Notes: a model not told the origin generated them from the letters alone. Counted from the first letter of the stretch, positions 36,080-45,338 are shown. The stretch: 64,000 bases of DNA from Candidatus Heimdallarchaeota archaeon (GCA_011364965.1 RDOB01000004.1:360769-424768), one strand, 5' to 3'. Translations and numbers: made by a program.

Positions 36080-36778
36080 TTGACTTTTCCCCCCCAGAAA
36101 ACCTTCCGTATTATTTCTCCGAAAGATTTATTCCTCTCTCGTGAACAAAAGGAAAATTTCTTTCTGATTCAGGATTATCTAAAAGGAATTCAATCTTTTC
36201 TAGAACCTCAGATAAGGTTAGAGCAATATTCTCTTCCAGATGACTTAATAGCCTTTATTCTAACATTAGTATCCAAAGATCTATCAAACAAGAGAATAAT
36301 CGATTTTGGATGTGGAACGGGTCGATTCACGCTTCCTATTGCAAAATTTTTTGCTCAAAGAGTGATCGGGGTCGATATTGATTATGAATCGGTGAAGTAT
36401 ATTAATTACTGGAAAAAAAGGCAAAATTTATCAGTAGATCTCATAATTACTCCTATAGAATTTTTGGAACCAGAAAAATGGAAGAATCTGTTTGATATGA
36501 CAGTAATGAATCCTCCATTCGGGACTAAACGACGAAGATTGGATACAGTATTTCTTAAAAAGGCTTTAAGCGGATCAGAAACAGTAATATCTATTCATAA
36601 ATCAAATTTATTAACAAGAAAATTGTTAAGTTCCATAGGGGACGAGTACGGAAAAGTTAATGAGATATTAGTAACAATTTCATTTTCTATTCCTCCTATT
36701 TTTCGTTCCCATCGCAAAAAAGCACATTTTGTAACAATTGATCTATATAAGTTTGCCTCTAAATCCCCTAAACGTTAA
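36080..36778 (+). CDS. METTL5-like SAM-dependent methyltransferase
   Basis: LEQYSLP, DFGCGTG, MNPPFG. Confidence 0.88.
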   Translation: MTFPPQKTFRIISPKDLFLSREQKENFFLIQDYLKGIQSFLEPQIRLEQYSLPDDLIAFILTLVSKDLSNKRIIDFGCGTGRFTLPIAKFFAQRVIGVDIDYESVKYINYWKKRQNLSVDLIITPIEFLEPEKWKNLFDMTVMNPPFGTKRRRLDTVFLKKALSGSETVISIHKSNLLTRKLLSSIGDEYGKVNEILVTISFSIPPIFRSHRKKAHFVTIDLYKFASKSPKR

Positions 36779-36898
36779 ATAAAATAAATCTTAAAAGATA
36801 AGATCACCCAACTCTCAAGAAATAGAAAATCGATGAATAAAGTTTATGACTAAGAGAATATTAAAATGATTATAAAGAAGCAATGAACGGGAATAGAA

Positions 36899-37510
36899 AT
36901 GAATAAAAGTAAGGAAATTGAATCTGAGGAGGATCTAGTTCTACCTGGAGATAAAATTGCTGTTATTGAAGAATTTGTGCCAGATGATACCTGTTATGAA
37001 GACGAGGGTGTAATTTATTCAACTTTCTTAGGCAAAGTTAATCCAGATTCAAAAAAACATAAAATCTCAGTTCAGCCTTTAAAAAAGTATCAAGAAGTAA
37101 AGGTTGGAGATATGGGAATAGGGCTTGTTCAATTCATAAAAAAGCAAATTGCTTCAATTGATGTTTTCTATATTAACAATGAATATTTACCCGTTCCATT
37201 TTCCTCTATTTTGCATGTTTCAGAAGCTTCAAGACGTTTTGTAAGAAGTATGTTTGAAGTTACGCGTCCTGGGGATTGGATCAAAGTTCGAATTATTAGA
37301 ACTATGAAACCAGTTTATGTTAGCCTTGTTGGTCACGATTTAGGAGTAATTATTGCATATTGCGTTCAATGTGGATATGAACTCGAATTTAAAAGACGAA
37401 ATACACTTCTATGTCCAAACTGTGATACTCTTCAACCACGAATTACGTCACGCAATTTCGGCAAACCTTTGAAACTAAGTTTGGGGTCATCTTTGAATGA
37501 AACCCGATGA
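36899..37510 (+). CDS. csl4: Exosome subunit Csl4
   Basis: VLPGD...EEF, S1 domain, LGVIIAYC-x2-C...C-x2-C Zn ribbon. Confidence 0.93.
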   Translation: MNKSKEIESEEDLVLPGDKIAVIEEFVPDDTCYEDEGVIYSTFLGKVNPDSKKHKISVQPLKKYQEVKVGDMGIGLVQFIKKQIASIDVFYINNEYLPVPFSSILHVSEASRRFVRSMFEVTRPGDWIKVRIIRTMKPVYVSLVGHDLGVIIAYCVQCGYELEFKRRNTLLCPNCDTLQPRITSRNFGKPLKLSLGSSLNETR

Positions 37511-38321
37511 TAAATTACTCTGGAAAAAACTAGATAGAAATACAGAGGCATGGCGGAAAAGAAGAAAAGACACCAAAGATTACCAAACAGTGGATGCAGT
37601 TATAGACGCACAAACGATACAAGAAATTGAAAAATTGCAAAATAAGGGGATTTTAGGGGAATTAACAGGCACAATCGCTTCTGGAAAAGAATCAGGTGTT
37701 TTTTTAGCTAATGTTGGGCTCCTAGGAGATAGAATCTGTCAGGAAAATCAAATAGATCCTCCAATTGTCATTAAAATCTTCCGAACTAGTACAATGAATT
37801 TCAAAAAAATGTCTCAATATATTATTGGAGACCACAGATTTTACAAACAAAGCAAAAAGACTCGTAAAATAATCCATCTCTGGACAGAAAAGGAATTTCG
37901 AAATCTTCAACGAGCATCCTTTGCAGGTTTGAATGTTCCTAAACCAATTCTGGTTAAGAAAAATCTCCTTTTGATGGAATTACTCGGAGAAAATGGGATT
38001 CCTTATCCTCTTTTGAAAAATACTCCTTCTGCATATACTCAAGCCATCTTAACCAAAATTCTAGATCAAGTTAAGCATTTATTCAAGATTGGTTTGGTGC
38101 ACGCTGATTTATCTCCATTCAATATCCTTATAGGAAGAGACACTCCCTTTCTCATTGATATGAGTCAAAGCGTAATAACCTCACATCCAAATGCATTAAA
38201 ATTCCTTGAAAGAGATATAAACAATATTTTAACTCCTTTCTCCCAGTCAGGAGTGAATACCCCAGATTATGATGAATTATATGATGAAATCATAAAGCTC
38301 ACCCCTCAAGAATCATTCTAA
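37497..38321 (+). CDS. rio1: RIO1-family serine kinase
   Basis: SGKESGVF, KEFRNL, LVHADLSPFN, IDMSQ. Confidence 0.93.
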   Translation: MKPDDKLLWKKLDRNTEAWRKRRKDTKDYQTVDAVIDAQTIQEIEKLQNKGILGELTGTIASGKESGVFLANVGLLGDRICQENQIDPPIVIKIFRTSTMNFKKMSQYIIGDHRFYKQSKKTRKIIHLWTEKEFRNLQRASFAGLNVPKPILVKKNLLLMELLGENGIPYPLLKNTPSAYTQAILTKILDQVKHLFKIGLVHADLSPFNILIGRDTPFLIDMSQSVITSHPNALKFLERDINNILTPFSQSGVNTPDYDELYDEIIKLTPQESF

Positions 38322-38364
38322 AGCTAATAGAAATAAAGAAATTATATGGCAGGAGTAGAATAAA

Positions 38365-38961
38365 TTGACCATTGAAAGTAATATCCGGATCCCTAGGAGT
38401 CGAATAGGGGTTCTAATCGGTAAAGGTGGGAGTACAAAGAAACAATTGGAAACCCTTACTGGTGTAGAACTTACAATTGATAGTGAAGATGGTTCTGTAA
38501 TTATTCGGTCTACTCCAAACATTCCAGATCCTAGTTATATCTGGAAAACTCGAGAGATTATCCGTGCTATTGCACGAGGATTTAACGCTGACCGTGCGTT
38601 CCTTTTAATCGATGATGAGATCTATCTCGAAACAATAGAGCTTGAAGGGACAAAAAATAATATTAAGAGATTGAAATCGCGTCTAATTGGAGAAGGAGGC
38701 AAAGCAAGAAAAATGATTGAGATAAGCACTTCTGCATGTATTTCAATATTCGGTAACCAGGTTTCAATTATTGGCGAGTTAAATGAAATTGGGAACGCAA
38801 AAGAAGCAATAACACTTTTAATAAATGGCTCTAAACACAGCACTGTATTTCGATTCTTAGAACAATTACGTTTCCGTTCACGGATGAAACCTCCCAAGAT
38901 TTGGAAAGATAAATCTTTTGATGAAGAACTGACTATATCAGAAACTGAGGAAGAAGAATAA
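38365..38961 (+). CDS. KH-domain pre-rRNA processing protein Dim2/Pno1
   Basis: RIGVLIGKGG, AIARGF, RLIGEGGK, GSKHSTVF; follows rio1. Confidence 0.93.
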   Translation: MTIESNIRIPRSRIGVLIGKGGSTKKQLETLTGVELTIDSEDGSVIIRSTPNIPDPSYIWKTREIIRAIARGFNADRAFLLIDDEIYLETIELEGTKNNIKRLKSRLIGEGGKARKMIEISTSACISIFGNQVSIIGELNEIGNAKEAITLLINGSKHSTVFRFLEQLRFRSRMKPPKIWKDKSFDEELTISETEEEE

Positions 38962-39123: not shown

Positions 39124-39197
39124 GGGCCGATAGCTCAGCTTGGTAGAGCGTCTGGCTTGCACCCAGAAGGTCGCGAGTTCAAATCTCGCTCGGTCCA
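39124..39197 (+). tRNA. tRNA-Ala(TGC)
   Basis: GGGCCGA/TCGGTCC with G3:U70; TCTGG-CT-TGC-AC-CCAGA. Confidence 0.96.
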
Positions 39198-39274: not shown

Positions 39275-39475
39275 CTACGAGAAAATAGAGGTTAATCGTT
39301 GAAGTAACTCATCTGCATTTACTAATAACCAATCAAGAACTCCAGTTACAATACTTAGGATCAATAAAAAACCAAATAAACTTAATCCAATTAATATTCC
39401 TTCTTCCACGAGTGGAGATCCTCTTCTTTTTTGAAACAATAATTTGATAGTTCTCTTAGAAAATGACAAGATCAT
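39275..39475 (-). CDS. Flp-like type IV prepilin
   Basis: Class III signal KRRG|SPLVEEGILIGL with Glu at +5, then a hydrophobic helix; very short mature protein. Confidence 0.75.
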   Translation of the reverse strand: MILSFSKRTIKLLFQKRRGSPLVEEGILIGLSLFGFLLILSIVTGVLDWLLVNADELLQRLTSIFS

Positions 39476-39570: not shown

Positions 39571-40206
39571 ATGGAAGTATCGGTGTGCTTAGTGAAATTT
39601 ATTCCAACAAAACAGGTTAAGCCATTAAAAATAATTGTTTTAGGGGAAGGAGGTGTTGGAAAAACAACGATTTCAAAGACTTTCACTAGTAATTCGTGTT
39701 TTAAAGACGCTAGACAAACTATTGCAGTAGAATTTCATTCTATAATTTTTAATCTGGATTCAACCAAATTCAAGCTTCAAATATGGGATTTGGGAGGTCA
39801 AGAGCAATTCAAAAACATGGGAGTCTTTGGAGATTTTTGTAGAGGAGCAGATGCTGCTATCCTATGTTTTGATCTCACTGACTTATCCACTTTATTTTCG
39901 ATTCCTGATTGGTTAAAGTTCATAGAAAATGACACACCTAAATTTTTAGTCGGAACAAAGTATGATCTTGCTTCAACTGAAGAAAAAACATTTGATATAA
40001 CTTCATTCGAAGAAAAGTTTCATTGTGTTGATTCATATATTTGTTCCTCTAAAGAAATTAGTTCTGTTATCCAGATCTTTAAGGGCGTTATTGACTTTCT
40101 AGAAAACGGGAAAAATAGTCTACAATTGCCTTCCAAGACATCTGTTAAGATATCTAAACCTCTAGTATTATCACAAGGTGAGTTATATGCAAAAATTAAT
40201 AGGTAA
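39571..40206 (+). CDS. Rab-like small GTPase
   Basis: G1 GEGGVGKT, G2 TIAVEF, G3 KLQIWDLGGQ, G4 GTKYD, G5 SSK; no C-terminal prenylation Cys. Confidence 0.95.
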   Translation: MEVSVCLVKFIPTKQVKPLKIIVLGEGGVGKTTISKTFTSNSCFKDARQTIAVEFHSIIFNLDSTKFKLQIWDLGGQEQFKNMGVFGDFCRGADAAILCFDLTDLSTLFSIPDWLKFIENDTPKFLVGTKYDLASTEEKTFDITSFEEKFHCVDSYICSSKEISSVIQIFKGVIDFLENGKNSLQLPSKTSVKISKPLVLSQGELYAKINR

Positions 40207-40207
40207 A

Positions 40208-40930
40208 ATGAATAATAAACATGAAAATAAGAGAATTGTAAGTGGTGTGCCAGGATTCAATCGTTTAGTTGAAGGTGGTTTTAGGGAAAATTCAGTAAAT
40301 GTCGTCATTGCTGACCCTGGTTGCGGAAAATCAACTTTTTGTTGGCAATTCTGTGCTGAAGAGCCAGAAGCCCCTGCATTATATGTCTCCTTAGAACAGA
40401 ATCTAGATTCAGTGCTAAGAGATTGTCGTGATATTGGCCTGAATAATTTTGAAGACAAATATAGGAGAGGTCGTTTGCAATTCCAAGTTGCGTTTAGCGA
40501 GGATTCTGATATGACCTCTGGAGAAATCGGTTTGAGATTTTTTATGTCTGAACTCCCTAAATATCTTGAAATAATCAGGGAAACAGCAGAACATTATCAT
40601 GGAGGAATACGAATAGCAATAGATCCCCTTACTCCATTATTATTGGAAATTCCAGATTTGAACCAGCAACGAAATGCCATAAATCGAATATTTACATCTT
40701 TAAGAAAGATTGGTACAGCTGTTGTTACAATAGAGAAAGGATTTGGGGAATCTTTAGCGAAAGTGCCATTATTTCTTGCAGATTCCATTCTTGAATTAGA
40801 ACATATTGGTCTTGGTGGTATATACAACCGAACACTCCGTGTTCGTAAGTTTCGAGGTTCTGCACATGCTGAGACTCCTCAACCGATTCATTTTGAAACT
40901 GGAAAGGGGTTATCGGTATATGAAATCTAA
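40208..40930 (+). CDS. Single-domain KaiC/RAD55-like ATPase
   Basis: SGVPGFNRLVEGG, Walker A ADPGCGKS, YVSLEQ, RIAIDPL, RTLRVRKFRG; ATG 40208 one base after the GTPase stop. Confidence 0.92.
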   Translation: MNNKHENKRIVSGVPGFNRLVEGGFRENSVNVVIADPGCGKSTFCWQFCAEEPEAPALYVSLEQNLDSVLRDCRDIGLNNFEDKYRRGRLQFQVAFSEDSDMTSGEIGLRFFMSELPKYLEIIRETAEHYHGGIRIAIDPLTPLLLEIPDLNQQRNAINRIFTSLRKIGTAVVTIEKGFGESLAKVPLFLADSILELEHIGLGGIYNRTLRVRKFRGSAHAETPQPIHFETGKGLSVYEI

Positions 40931-41351
40931 TATTTTAGAATTGAAGCCCTCAATACCCTCTCTTCTTCGAACTATAGATCAGGAATTAGGGCATTTGAAC
41001 AACTTCATCGATATTCAGGCTGTTTTCCTCTTTAGAATCGATGGATATGTTTTGAAGTCCCATTATAGTACAAATCGCTCAAATAATCTCTTGCATGTCA
41101 TAGGTTGGGTTAAGCAAATTATCTCTAAAACTATGGAGGAATTGCAGAGAGGATCCAGATCCGTTAAATATGACAAAGAAATAAACGTAAATGAGTCTAT
41201 TCCAGTCTATTTCTATCGTGCAGGTCAATCCAGTATTTTAGTAACCTTTCTTAGGTCAAAAGCAAATACTGGATTAATGGAAATTGAGATGAGTCGAACT
41301 GCAAAACGTTTGAGCTATATAATTGATAATTTTGATAGTTTAGAGGTTTAA
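40920..41351 (+). CDS. Roadblock/longin-like (profilin-fold) protein
   Basis: 143 aa from ATG 40920, overlapping the KaiC end; IQAVFLFRIDGYVL, YRAGQSSILVTF and NTGLMEIEMSRTAKRL match the roadblock/LC7 pattern. Confidence 0.75.
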   Translation: MKSNILELKPSIPSLLRTIDQELGHLNNFIDIQAVFLFRIDGYVLKSHYSTNRSNNLLHVIGWVKQIISKTMEELQRGSRSVKYDKEINVNESIPVYFYRAGQSSILVTFLRSKANTGLMEIEMSRTAKRLSYIIDNFDSLEV

Positions 41352-41353
41352 AA

Positions 41354-42730
41354 ATGATTAATGCCTCGGTTGGTCTATTTATTAATCACGATCTAAATTA
41401 TGCAACACAAAAAGCCTTAGAACAGGCTGAAGCGAAGTTGGATGGGGATCCCTCTCTCATTCTATATTTTACCGGGACTCATCTTGGGGGTTCCCAGACA
41501 TACGATAGAGCATTAAGGATTATCAAGCAGAAATATCCCAGAATTCCCTTGGCAGGATGTTCAGGAATCGGAATATGTGATAAACATGATTATGGTCTAA
41601 AAGGGGCTGGTATTCTCCTAGTAACAGGGATCACCGCTAGAACTTCACTTATAAAGCGTTTTAGAATTGGTACGAGTCTAAAAGCTCGCAAAATTCGACG
41701 GAATTGTAATAAAATAAATCGTATTGAAAAAAAAAGAGGATCGAACACAACTTTCCTTTTTTTTCCCCCTGGACTTGGTTTTCCCAAATTCTTAATTAAT
41801 TTACTAAATCATAAGATTGAAGGCTTTAATCCCTTTTTTCCTCTGAATAATCGCATTTGGCGATTGTTTCCTTTATTATCGAAACTTTCTGGTAAGTTTG
41901 CTGGATTCGCTATGGACATTGCTGGGATTGGAATCTCCTACTCGGCGGCTTGGCCTCTGTTTTCACAATTATATGAGGATGGTATTCATTTTACCGGCAC
42001 ATTTGGTACCGATCCTCTTACCATGAATAAATCATATCAATTCAGTAATTTTAAAGCATATAAGGACTCTTTAGTTTATGTTTCCATTAGTTCTCCTTTT
42101 TTACACTTTACAAGTCAAACTGATAGTGGTGCTCAAATAATTCCTCAAAAAACTTTCGATTTGGATAGTTATCTAAATGGGGGTTTTATTCCCAGAATTA
42201 GAAAGAAATGGGGAAAACTTGCATTATTAGAGCTTTTTGACATGGAAAAAACTCCTGAAATCTTAGAAGAATGTATTCAACGATATTTCTACTATCATCC
42301 ATTTCGACCATTGTGCGTGATTGATAACTCAAACAATCAAAATATTTATTGTTTAGCAGTAAATCCAAATCTCAATCACGCGCTGATTACAGCGCCTAAC
42401 CAAGTTGCTAAGCAATTAATCAAAACATCTAGAAATAGATTAAATGCATATATTTGTGATCAGAGTTCTCAAACTATTGAATCCTTACTAAAGGAAACTT
42501 TGTCAAAACAGGTTTCAAAAAACACCCTATTCGGTTTATTTTTCGATTGTGGGAATAGAGCAATGATCATTGGTGATAGATTCGACCAATACTCAAAGGT
42601 TTATGCTGATAACTTAAATATTCCTTATTTGGTTGTCATATCTGGAGGTGAAATAAATTCGCAGACATTCCCTATTGTTAACATGAGTTTAATCTCCAGT
42701 TTGGCACACGGAACCATAAATTCTCCCTAG
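41354..42730 (+). CDS. FIST-domain sensory protein
   Basis: N-terminal PSLILYF...IPLAGCSGIG; C-terminal LFFDCGNR...SGGEI. Confidence 0.8.
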   Translation: MINASVGLFINHDLNYATQKALEQAEAKLDGDPSLILYFTGTHLGGSQTYDRALRIIKQKYPRIPLAGCSGIGICDKHDYGLKGAGILLVTGITARTSLIKRFRIGTSLKARKIRRNCNKINRIEKKRGSNTTFLFFPPGLGFPKFLINLLNHKIEGFNPFFPLNNRIWRLFPLLSKLSGKFAGFAMDIAGIGISYSAAWPLFSQLYEDGIHFTGTFGTDPLTMNKSYQFSNFKAYKDSLVYVSISSPFLHFTSQTDSGAQIIPQKTFDLDSYLNGGFIPRIRKKWGKLALLELFDMEKTPEILEECIQRYFYYHPFRPLCVIDNSNNQNIYCLAVNPNLNHALITAPNQVAKQLIKTSRNRLNAYICDQSSQTIESLLKETLSKQVSKNTLFGLFFDCGNRAMIIGDRFDQYSKVYADNLNIPYLVVISGGEINSQTFPIVNMSLISSLAHGTINSP

Positions 42731-42749
42731 AATGGAGGATTAAACCAAA

Positions 42750-44126
42750 TTGGCTGTAATTCATTCTATACTAGGAATTTCAGCAATTCCAAATGAATTT
42801 CAAATATTAACAATGAAATATTTTGGATTACAGGTAGTAGTATCAGGTATCTATCTAAGTTATGCTTGGATTTCTCTTTATTATTTAGTAATATTGAACT
42901 CGGTTTCATTGTATAGTTATATTGTTGCAATAGGTATGCTTTGCGGAGCATTATTAGATTTTCCTTTGGGACTAATAACTGACCGTTTTGGCCAGAAGAA
43001 AGCTTATTGTGGGGCTTTATCATGTCTTTTAATTTATTATTTAGGGTTAATATTTGCTAAAAGTGCATTTGACCTTCTAGTATTGGAAATTATTGTAGGA
43101 GTTTATTCAGCTTTAATTTCTGGATCCTTCATTACTTGGTTTATGAATTCTTGGGAACTAATCTCTATGAATATAGGAAAAGAGTCAAAAATCCAATTTA
43201 ATGCAATTATGAGTAATATTAATTCTATTAAAACAGTCCTAGTAGCTACAATGACTATCTTTGGAGGTTTTTTATTAAATAAATTAGCTATTCCTCCTCA
43301 AGGCATTTTTCTCTTACAATCTGCAATAGCAGGCTTTGGAATTCTATTAGGAATTCGATTTTTGAACACCCCAATCACAGAAAGCAGAATGGAATCTGAA
43401 GTTCCAAGATCTGATAGGACTAATGGTTTTCATACATTAGCTAAAATTAGAGAACTGATATTACTTCTTCAATCACGATATGCCAAGGTAACAATCTTCT
43501 TTCTCAGCTTATCCCTTTTGGGTTTTACATCAATGGCATTTCAGACACTGCTTTTCACGCCATTATTATACGAATTAACCACTCACTCCCCTATTTTTAA
43601 ATCCACTGAGAAAATTTTGATAACATATACTACATTATCAATATTTCTAATTTCCTTTATACAAGCTGGTTCCGATTTTATCCACGCGATTGCATGTAGG
43701 CTGTCTGGACGAATATTCAACAATGTTATTTCCCCTTATCGAATTTTAATTGTCATTTATTCATTGATTTATCCAGTTGTGTGGTTATTTCTCGTATTTC
43801 TCCTCTCATCTAGTGTTCCAAAGTATTTCAAACTTATTGGCGTAATAAGTATTTACTTAATACGATTAATTATAGTTGGTCTAATTTCAAGTTTGTATTG
43901 GCAATTTTATATGAAAATTACTATAGTTAAAATTCGAAGTTCTCAAGAATCGTTATTTAATACTATTTACCTAGTAGTTTCAGTTTTGGGATTTGCTCTA
44001 ATTGGTATTATCATAGAAAGATTCAGTTTGGAATCTAGTCTTCTTAGTCTTTTTATAATTAGTACCCTTGGCATTTTCCTTTTAATTATTGGGGATTATG
44101 CTGAAATTTCTATTAAAAATAATTGA
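42750..44126 (+). CDS. MFS transporter
   Basis: About 12 TM; motif A DFPLGLITDRFGQKK; GGAGG RBS. Confidence 0.88.
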   Translation: MAVIHSILGISAIPNEFQILTMKYFGLQVVVSGIYLSYAWISLYYLVILNSVSLYSYIVAIGMLCGALLDFPLGLITDRFGQKKAYCGALSCLLIYYLGLIFAKSAFDLLVLEIIVGVYSALISGSFITWFMNSWELISMNIGKESKIQFNAIMSNINSIKTVLVATMTIFGGFLLNKLAIPPQGIFLLQSAIAGFGILLGIRFLNTPITESRMESEVPRSDRTNGFHTLAKIRELILLLQSRYAKVTIFFLSLSLLGFTSMAFQTLLFTPLLYELTTHSPIFKSTEKILITYTTLSIFLISFIQAGSDFIHAIACRLSGRIFNNVISPYRILIVIYSLIYPVVWLFLVFLLSSSVPKYFKLIGVISIYLIRLIIVGLISSLYWQFYMKITIVKIRSSQESLFNTIYLVVSVLGFALIGIIIERFSLESSLLSLFIISTLGIFLLIIGDYAEISIKNN

Positions 44127-44141
44127 TTTGCCAGTTATATT

Positions 44142-45338
44142 TTATAGATATTCACTAGGAGTACTTGGGGGTCTACTACCAGATAGAACTTTTTTAATAG
44201 CCTTCTTGAAATCATTAAAAGTAACACGTGTTCGTTTTTCTCTAATCGCAAACATCCCTGATTCCTGTGTGATCGCTCGTATATCTGCACCAGAAGCGTT
44301 GGCTGTTTCACTTGCTAAATATGAATAATCAACTTTTGAATCCACATTCATCGTACGTGTGTGAATTTTGAATATTTCTTGTCTCTCCTCATGTGTAGGT
44401 AAGAGAAACTCAATATGTCTATCAAATCGACCTGGTCGTAATAGCGCTGGATCTAAAATATCAACTCGGTTTGTTGCTCCGATAATTTTCACATCCCCTC
44501 TTGGAGAGAAACCATCCAATTCACTTAGAAGCTGCATTAAGGTTCGTTGTACTTCTCGGTCTCCGCTTGTAGCAATATCAAGACGTTTACTTCCAATTGC
44601 ATCTAATTCGTCAATAAACAAAATACTCGGGGAATTGTCCCGTGCGAAAGCAAATACCTCTCTAACCAGTCTTGCTCCTTCTCCAATATACTTTTGAACC
44701 AATTCGGATCCGATGACTCGAATAAAGGTAGCTTTGGTTTCATGAGCCACTGCTTTGACCATTAATGTCTTACCTGAACCAGGAGGTCCATGTAATAGTA
44801 CTCCTTTTGGTGGTTCAATTCCAACTTTCACAAACAATTCTGGTTGTAATAGCGGTAGTTCAACAGTTTCTTTAAGCTCTTGTAGTTGTAATTTAAGGCC
44901 GCCGATATCCGTATAGGTCTCTGTTGGCTTTGAATCAACCTCCATGGAGCGTACTAGCGGGTCTCGTGATTGAGGTAGTACTTCAAGAATTGCAAAATTT
45001 CTTTGATGAAGTGCTACTCTTGCACCTGCTATTAGTTCCTCTCTGGATATTGAAGAATCAATTACAACAACAAAAGATGGACCTGTAGAGCTTTTTACAA
45101 TAGCTTTCCCATTTTCCAGTATTTCTTGAATAGTCCCTGTAAACAATGGAGGTTGACGGAGTTTTTGCAATTCTAGCTTAAGATTATCTCTCTCCTCTTC
45201 TAATTTGTTACGCTGTACCTCAAGGAGCTGTCTTTCAGTTTCTAAGGCACGAATTCGTCTTTCCATGGTACGCGTATAGCTATCAGTGAAATCATCATAT
45301 GATTCTTTATTATCCACACTCTCAGGCATCAGTTCCAC
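44142..45338 (-). CDS. pan: Proteasome-activating nucleotidase
   Basis: Coiled coil, OB fold, GPPGSGKT, FIDELDAIG, ALLRPGRFDR. Confidence 0.98.
   Translation of the reverse strand: MELMPESVDNKESYDDFTDSYTRTMERRIRALETERQLLEVQRNKLEEERDNLKLELQKLRQPPLFTGTIQEILENGKAIVKSSTGPSFVVVIDSSISREELIAGARVALHQRNFAILEVLPQSRDPLVRSMEVDSKPTETYTDIGGLKLQLQELKETVELPLLQPELFVKVGIEPPKGVLLHGPPGSGKTLMVKAVAHETKATFIRVIGSELVQKYIGEGARLVREVFAFARDNSPSILFIDELDAIGSKRLDIATSGDREVQRTLMQLLSELDGFSPRGDVKIIGATNRVDILDPALLRPGRFDRHIEFLLPTHEERQEIFKIHTRTMNVDSKVDYSYLASETANASGADIRAITQESGMFAIREKRTRVTFNDFKKAIKKVLSGSRPPSTPSEYL

Follow-up and report, generated by a model that had tools for sequence, protein, structure and literature searches.

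Five co-oriented genes at positions 39571-44126 of a 64,000-nucleotide stretch of DNA from Candidatus Heimdallarchaeota archaeon (GCA_011364965.1 RDOB01000004.1:360769-424768, hereafter the window) encode a Rab-like small GTPase, a KaiC-like ATPase, a roadblock protein, a FIST-domain protein and an MFS-type membrane protein. Together they represent a real, conserved signalling-type module, a variant of GTPase-roadblock systems. That the four soluble proteins work together as one regulatory module is probable (I put this at about 80%), and the MFS protein is a lineage-specific accessory that stands outside the conserved core. The five genes are the following:

39571..40206, + strand: Rab-like small GTPase, 211 residues (Pfam Ras, E 1.5e-26)
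40187 (likely) or 40208..40930, + strand: single-domain KaiC-like ATPase of the RecA superfamily (Pfam KaiC, E 2.4e-27)
40920..41351, + strand: roadblock-fold protein of the 'AF0774' type, 143 residues, overlapping the KaiC gene by 11 nucleotides
41354..42730, + strand: FIST-domain protein, 458 residues, with FIST_N and FIST_C (Pfam)
42750..44126, + strand: MFS-type polytopic membrane protein, 458 residues (MFS_1)

Related loci were gathered with a KaiC alignment as query. KaiC, roadblock and FIST genes are contiguous in 30/30 loci from 30 Heimdallarchaeia genomes, an arrangement far beyond chance. The GTPase gene comes before KaiC in Hodarchaeales and after FIST in Heimdallarchaeaceae; the second arrangement is also found in a genome of another family (G025) and on one metagenomic contig. 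The original prediction, which was made from the window alone, had staked its signalling unit on co-occurrence in other genomes, and for the GTPase, KaiC, roadblock and FIST genes this is what was found, in two Heimdallarchaeia families and despite the change in gene order. That the linkage survives rearrangement argues for selection on co-expression. Furthermore, the proteins of the Hodarchaeales and Heimdallarchaeaceae modules share just 20-35% identity and the flanking genes are entirely different, which argues that the linkage was selected and is not inherited synteny. The phyletic patterns of roadblock and FIST also match: FIST is present in 21/21 genomes of the window's genus and in all six sampled genomes of the second family, and roadblock in 20 of the 21 genus genomes and in 28/31 genomes of family f3. 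FIST relatives are named Candidatus Hodarchaeales or Hodarchaeota; the window's genus includes CP070695.1, 'Candidatus Heimdallarchaeota archaeon bin6', and the second family includes Candidatus Heimdallarchaeum endolithica and aukensis. At one genus locus (L015, G015:C1:616602-629960; one contig, genome 70% complete) the roadblock match begins at residue 46 and neither KaiC nor the operon GTPase was found upstream of it, which may reflect an assembly join or loss.

The invariant core of the module is the KaiC-roadblock pair. It is KaiC and roadblock, not roadblock and GTPase, that remain constant, in Hodarchaeales contigs as in euryarchaeal loci. Other Hodarchaeales contigs (L087, L088) carry this pair without FIST, GTPase or MFS, and a distant Asgard genome, G397, carries KaiC-roadblock-FIST followed by a bona fide MFS gene (MFS_1 E 6.9e-39) with no adjacent GTPase gene. 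Divergently upstream of the G397 cluster, L073:4149-4634 (- strand) encodes a longin-like protein that weakly matches Fuz_longin_1 and Sybindin. Loci of Methanosarcinales, Methanomassiliicoccales and Thermoplasmata contain a related KaiC (29-33% identity), then a 258-residue protein whose N-terminal half resembles the AF0774-type roadblock (hhalign probability 91.5%), and have a V4R-domain protein upstream. No FIST or GTPase gene was found in these KaiC-roadblock loci: the third gene there (427-594 residues) was tried as a FIST relative and gave an hhalign probability below 1%, both as a single sequence and as a six-sequence profile. A 116-residue gene upstream of KaiC in the euryarchaeal loci was ruled out as a roadblock.

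In the window, the listing of open reading frames (ORFs) gives five on the + strand at 39571-44126, nearly without gaps (39571-40206, 211 residues; 40178/40208-40930; 40806/40920-41351; 41354-42730, 458 residues; 42750-44126, 458 residues). With the start codons first proposed, successive genes are, as claimed, separated by 1 bp (base pair), overlap by 11 bp, and are then separated by 2 bp and by 19 bp, and the five genes do form one tightly packed unit. The KaiC gene more likely starts at ATG 40187 than at ATG 40208, that is, 21 nucleotides earlier, because the residues before the 40208 ATG (MQKLIGKM) are kept in orthologues as MQKLLRKM in the alignment and because ATG 40187 is preceded by a GGTGA element at 5 nucleotides. 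A start at 40187 would give a 20-nucleotide overlap with the GTPase gene; the coupling of the two genes is tight with either start. Two observations support TTG 42750 as the start of the MFS gene: orthologue alignments open at residue 1, and there is a GGAGG 11 nucleotides upstream. A scan with bacterial promoter and terminator models was uninformative (26 promoter-like sites against 23 expected; window G+C about 33-37%).

All five family or fold assignments of the original prediction were recovered, including a roadblock fold that Pfam misses. The GTPase has the motifs of the Ras superfamily, with G1 GEGGVGKTTISK (GEGGVGKT, for GxxxxGK[ST]), an invariant switch I threonine (T50), G3 DLGGQ (DxxGQ) and G4 TKYD ([NT]KxD), all kept in orthologues; G1-G4 are intact, catalytic Gln included. 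Its closest solved sequences are Rab33B, Rab12 and Rab43. In G4 all of the genus has TKxD and Heimdallarchaeaceae have NKxD; G3 of the latter is DFAGQ. As TKxD is also present in Rac1, it is no defect. The protein is nevertheless no eukaryotic Rab proper, since neither it nor its orthologues have a cysteine in the C-terminal tail; near the C-terminal end there is an [IV]SK[HY] motif instead of a prenylation cysteine. It is also no Rag/Gtr protein: it consists of the G domain and a tail of about 35 residues with no C-terminal roadblock domain, and Gtr1_RagA covers residues 20-82 only. Nor does it belong to the MglA family, in which the G3 Asp is reportedly replaced by Thr or Ser, whereas here the Asp is kept in both lineages. 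Two features mark the module-linked GTPases: a GKTTIS[KR] extension, found in 11/11 of those from both lineages and in 0/20 sampled paralogues, and the C-terminal [IV]SK[HY], found in most module GTPases of both lineages and again in none of the 20 sampled paralogues. The window genome has 19 GTPase matches, among them a close paralogue of the operon GTPase (52% identity; G000:C2:3321-3938, locus L105) in an unrelated context, with G1 GKTTLAK and G4 TKMD, which clusters with the genus operon GTPases in the tree.

The ATPase matches Pfam KaiC with 96 bits (cut-off 26.6) over profile positions 3-228 of 231 and has the Walker A motif ADPGCGKS, the Walker B motif IRIAID and an invariant first catalytic Glu (E63), as expected of a KaiC/RecA ATPase. 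The catalytic pair is E-Q in the window genus and E-E in Heimdallarchaeaceae by alignment, and the latter proteins have an extra 70-residue C-terminal extension. It is not the circadian KaiC, which has two tandem domains and about 500 residues; here there is one domain in 240-247 residues, and the equivalog models score 36-80 bits against cut-offs of 408-546. Matches to the NCBIfam models KaiC, KaiC_arch_4 and ArlH are all below their cut-offs.

The roadblock protein of the window has no Pfam or NCBIfam match. Its assignment to the roadblock/LC7 superfamily comes from the order of its fold elements and from a profile match: a profile of 12 orthologues matches the Thorarchaeota roadblock structure PDB 7f8m over its full length (E 6e-6), and the AlphaFold model (predicted local distance difference test score, pLDDT, 86) has the element order a-b-b-a-b-b-b-a, its top Foldseek matches being MglB, the MK-D1 and Thorarchaeota roadblocks and the LAMTORs, at probability 1.00. 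An ESM Atlas feature search agrees, one orthologue has a weak Robl_LC7 match (0.0045), and relatives carry the precomputed, newer Pfam label PF27410 'AF0774'. R39 and D41 (in an LFRxDG hairpin) and E123 are invariant in the family and W63 nearly so. The family is small: 1.8 billion proteins yielded 53 cluster representatives at E<=1e-3. The window genome has one copy. Behind one AF0774-type roadblock gene, on a short metagenomic contig (L085:641-1687), come a canonical Robl_LC7 gene and a DDE transposase.

For the fourth protein, FIST_N scores 36.4 bits (E 6.4e-9), above its cut-off of 23.2, and FIST_C 25.4 bits (E 1.7e-5), below its cut-off of 28.5; the C-terminal motifs CxNR...GD and GGE are conserved. 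The AlphaFold model (pLDDT 75.5) contains a low-confidence insertion of about 60 residues, and its best Foldseek matches are structures of FBXO22 (8ua3, 8ua6, 8s7d; E 4e-5 to 1.4e-4, 8-9% identity). The FIST profile found no match in the PDB by sequence. One profile search found a single copy in the window genome, and the 59 FIST relatives found are unnamed or labelled Heimdallarchaeota, Hodarchaeales or Promethearchaeota. FIST domains are said to have been proposed as small-ligand sensors from their gene neighbourhoods. The only solved FIST structure, FBXO22, is bound to a protein, the BACH1 BTB domain, according to the entry titles. Thus, of the earlier view of this protein, the fold stands and small-ligand sensing is kept as just one possibility.

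Hydropathy shows about 12 hydrophobic segments and a central loop in the fifth protein, which also has the motif A GLITDRFGQKK, as in other MFS proteins. Its MFS_1 score (30.9-32.2 bits) is just under the cut-off of 33.4, and four orthologues score above it (36-52 bits, profile positions 10-346). No NCBIfam subfamily was found, and the substrate is unreadable from sequence. The gene follows FIST in all five genus loci tested and in none of the Heimdallarchaeaceae loci examined. It had been counted as a full member of the unit; it proves to be restricted to the Hodarchaeales genus, plus one independent, non-orthologous case in G397. The window and G397 proteins cannot be taken as orthologues, as only motif A aligns between them. 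With 40-68 MFS matches per genome, roughly 1% of genes in the sampled genomes, two independent recruitments beside FIST have a chance of about 1%, a suggestive figure that is a rough estimate from the few architectures inspected.

How might such a module work? The old core would be the cytoplasmic pair of a single-domain KaiC-like ATPase and its dedicated AF0774-type roadblock protein, to which, in Heimdallarchaeia, a FIST protein and a dedicated Rab-like GTPase may have been added. FIST would serve for input or recognition; KaiC, through its nucleotide or autophosphorylation state, would set the state of the roadblock protein, probably a dimer; the roadblock protein would then be a platform steering the GTP/GDP state or the location of the GTPase, as MglB, Ragulator and the conservon protein CvnB do; and the GTPase would be the output switch. 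In the Hodarchaeales genus the MFS protein may serve as an anchor for the module, be under its control or supply it, and it would be dispensable in the Heimdallarchaeaceae version. I give this specific scheme, from FIST through KaiC and roadblock to GTPase, even odds. It is proposed because roadblocks (MglB, Ragulator, CvnB) and KaiC-family ATPases act in this way elsewhere; the genes, their folds and their conserved linkage are established, and the contacts between the proteins, the direction of flow and the signal are inferred. The catalytic motifs of the module proteins are compatible with activity, and the top structural matches of the roadblock model, MglB and the LAMTORs, are GTPase regulators, which would favour joint work of the four proteins.

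Several observations weigh against joint work or against parts of this scheme. Maximum-likelihood analysis puts the module GTPases of the two lineages into two long-branch clades that do not group together; a joint clade cannot be rejected (p-AU, the approximately unbiased test, 0.21), which is no evidence for one, so the GTPase may have been acquired on two occasions. A single recruitment with later relocation is also possible. Because G397 has no adjacent GTPase gene, the KaiC-roadblock-FIST triad does not need a linked GTPase in order to work. Gln replaces the second catalytic Glu of KaiC in the window genus, and the template modelling scores (TM-scores) between the FIST model and FBXO22 are low, at 0.37-0.50. 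Finally, a 337-residue metagenomic protein (P0009; L028:6411-7424, L029:1198-2211) is an AF0774-type roadblock fused to a Ras-like domain, which speaks for a physical link between roadblock and G domain, but its G domain is degenerate, with no P-loop Lys and no DxxGQ, making it a pseudo-GTPase and the fusion a weak Rosetta stone only. No KaiC or FIST gene lies near the fusion gene in L028 or L029, and an MFS gene near it in L028 is unrelated to that of the window.

The surroundings of the unit bear on the alternatives. Its boundaries and immediate neighbours in the window are these:

39124-39197: tRNA-Ala, the upstream boundary of the unit together with a small divergent ORF
39275-39475, - strand: small ORF resembling a Flp/type IV pilin, divergent from the GTPase gene, no Pfam match
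44142-45338, convergent: gene for a proteasome-activating AAA ATPase, the downstream boundary

The pilin-like ORF has the motif KRRG/SPLVEEG, with the break after KRRG, followed by a hydrophobic helix. From RRG on it is almost identical between genus genomes whose other proteins share 47-80% identity, an unusually strong constraint for so tiny a protein. As a neighbour it is specific to the genus, and it counts only doubtfully as a member of the module. Farther upstream (36080-38961, + strand) is a housekeeping cluster of a methyltransferase, a Csl4-like exosome subunit, a RIO kinase and a KH/Krr1-like protein, which is syntenic with the operon throughout the genus, yet unrelated to it.

The Heimdallarchaeaceae modules have neighbours of their own:

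L018:7448-7834, L022:7382-7702 and L023:7512-7829: conserved fifth gene encoding about 106 residues, with a CxxC motif and the block SQLFNFVLMHANDHTL, no Pfam family
L018:3247-4056 (- strand), L018:2610-3038 (- strand) and L022:3264-4022 (- strand): eukaryote-signature-like neighbours upstream of the module and divergent from it, a winged-helix protein (weak matches to UFM1-ligase, DDRGK and PCI) and an OST3/OST6-like protein

A search of the window genome, which is 87% complete, gave no match to the 106-residue protein.

Among the alternatives, the original prediction favoured a nutrient-sensing relay in which the MFS protein imports a ligand, FIST binds it, and KaiC and roadblock pass the information to the GTPase, in the manner of Ragulator, Rag and a transporter. 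The constant position of the MFS gene after FIST in the genus, its second and non-orthologous recruitment behind KaiC-roadblock-FIST in G397, and the ligand-sensing role said to have been proposed for FIST all speak for such a relay. However, the MFS gene is missing from every Heimdallarchaeaceae locus examined, where the other four genes are kept, and in G397 it occurs with no adjacent GTPase; moreover, the one solved FIST domain binds a protein, the GTPase is no Rag and the MFS substrate cannot be read. I consider the relay unlikely.

To much the same degree improbable is a surface or polarity regulator of the MglA/MglB type, in which a KaiC/ArlH-like ATPase, together with GTPase and roadblock, would govern cell protrusions or an apparatus like a type IV pilus or the Tad system. 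The pilin-like ORF beside the GTPase gene, with its almost invariant mature part, invites this reading, as do the weak ArlH/FlaH match of KaiC and the place of MglB as top structural match of the roadblock model. However, the MglA family reportedly replaces the G3 Asp that is kept here in DxxGQ, the ArlH match reaches only 33 bits where the cut-off is 215, the operon contains no pilus ATPase or platform gene, and no pilin homologue was found beside the module in Heimdallarchaeaceae, in G397 or at the other scanned loci. KaiC-family ATPases and roadblock/LC7 proteins do recur in archaeal type IV pilus loci (PMC4858521).

Less probable again, in my estimate, is that the module is a forerunner, by its logic, of eukaryotic lysosomal nutrient sensing, in which an ATPase, a roadblock platform and a transporter would jointly set a small GTPase at a membrane. 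Were this so, it would have been found in the two archaeal lineages closest to eukaryotes, and the repeated, independent recruitment of MFS proteins would be real transceptor coupling. A role in anti-phage defence was rejected, as the PADLOC models yielded nothing beyond two weak P-loop matches, both of them to the GTPase (E about 0.006 and 0.01). Finally, although the upstream synteny in the genus also spans the unrelated housekeeping genes, so that conserved order within the genus alone is weak evidence, it is very improbable that the four genes are old chromosomal neighbours with no joint function, since their flanks differ fully between families while they stay together and are rearranged as a block, their start and stop codons overlap, and their phyletic patterns match.

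Thus, joint work of the four soluble proteins as one regulatory module best accounts for the data. Small GTPases number in the dozens in Asgard genomes, which also have many roadblock and longin proteins, and matching GTPases to regulators is a recognised problem. In MK-D1 the GTPase genes are generally not in operons with roadblock genes (Tran et al., 2024; PMC10933270). The operon described here names likely partners for an Asgard GTPase that could not otherwise be assigned any, in a host from the group closest to eukaryotes, and the module would join archaeal KaiC-type signalling to a eukaryote-like GTPase switch. It also defines a conserved set of four soluble proteins, from Hodarchaeales and from Heimdallarchaeaceae, that is open to binding assays and to tests for GTPase-activating protein (GAP) or guanine nucleotide exchange factor (GEF) activity; a circularised Candidatus Heimdallarchaeum is among the source organisms.

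The combination was thought to be undescribed, and no description of it was found in the searched literature, which did not cover the mBio 2017 paper on KaiC hubs, where the KaiC-roadblock pair may already be mentioned. Also new are the second, non-orthologous MFS recruitment without a GTPase, the fusion of a roadblock to a pseudo-GTPase, the revised KaiC start, the GTPase motifs common to both lineages set against an undecided tree, and the negative FIST test of the euryarchaeal third gene.

Comparison with known systems places the module among several that share parts of it. FBXO22, a eukaryotic F-box protein with a FIST domain and the best structural match of the window FIST model, differs in that the window protein has no F-box and in that FBXO22 is protein-bound, whereas prokaryotic FIST domains are only predicted to bind small ligands. 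The system of Ragulator, Rag and SLC38A9, with the v-ATPase, likewise combines a roadblock scaffold, a small GTPase, a polytopic transporter and an ATPase, and LAMTORs are structural matches of the window roadblock; its ATPase and transporter are, however, from unrelated families, and the window transporter is no conserved member. The parallel that had been drawn with this system therefore holds as an analogy of logic only, because the GTPase lacks the C-terminal roadblock domain of Rag.

MglA/MglB of Myxococcus xanthus and Thermus thermophilus, a Ras-like GTPase and its roadblock-dimer GAP, also shows gene linkage of GTPase and roadblock, and the MglB structures 3t1r, 1j3w, 3t12 and 6izw are among the best matches of the window roadblock model. 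Unlike MglA/MglB, the window module has a Rab-like GTPase with a G3 Asp and includes FIST; unlike MglB, the AF0774-type protein belongs to a small family, has no Robl_LC7 Pfam match in the window and has a KaiC-like ATPase as its constant neighbour. The actinobacterial conservon CvnA-D, reportedly proposed as a G-protein-coupled switch, is similar as a cassette of four genes: besides a roadblock/LC7 protein and a Ras-like GTPase it encodes a sensor-type protein that binds ATP and a third protein of unclear role. The Streptomyces roadblock structure 3kye is among the fold matches. The module is no CvnABCD conservon, however, as the five proteins have no HATPase or DUF742 Pfam match and only roadblock and GTPase correspond; a soluble RecA-type KaiC-like ATPase stands in place of the membrane histidine-kinase-like CvnA, FIST in place of DUF742, and the lineage is archaeal.

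Archaeal KaiC-like ATPases have been described as 'signal transduction hubs' (Makarova, Galperin and Koonin, mBio 2017, via PMC5847659). The module resembles these hubs, ArlH/FlaH among them, in that a single-domain KaiC-family ATPase is encoded beside small partner proteins, and differs from those described in the partners of its ATPase, namely an AF0774-type roadblock, FIST and a small GTPase, a combination that does not appear in the searched literature. A further comparison is with an Asgard operon of a LAMTOR1-like roadblock, a Rab-like GTPase and DENN (Liu et al., bioRxiv 10.1101/2020.10.19.343400), which, with the ESCRT operons, is the only one given among conserved operons of eukaryotic signature proteins in the main text of that paper. 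Both are among the few conserved Asgard operons that combine a Rab-like GTPase with a protein of the roadblock superfamily; the module described here has KaiC and FIST instead of DENN, and a narrower range, comprising Hodarchaeales, Heimdallarchaeaceae and a few others.

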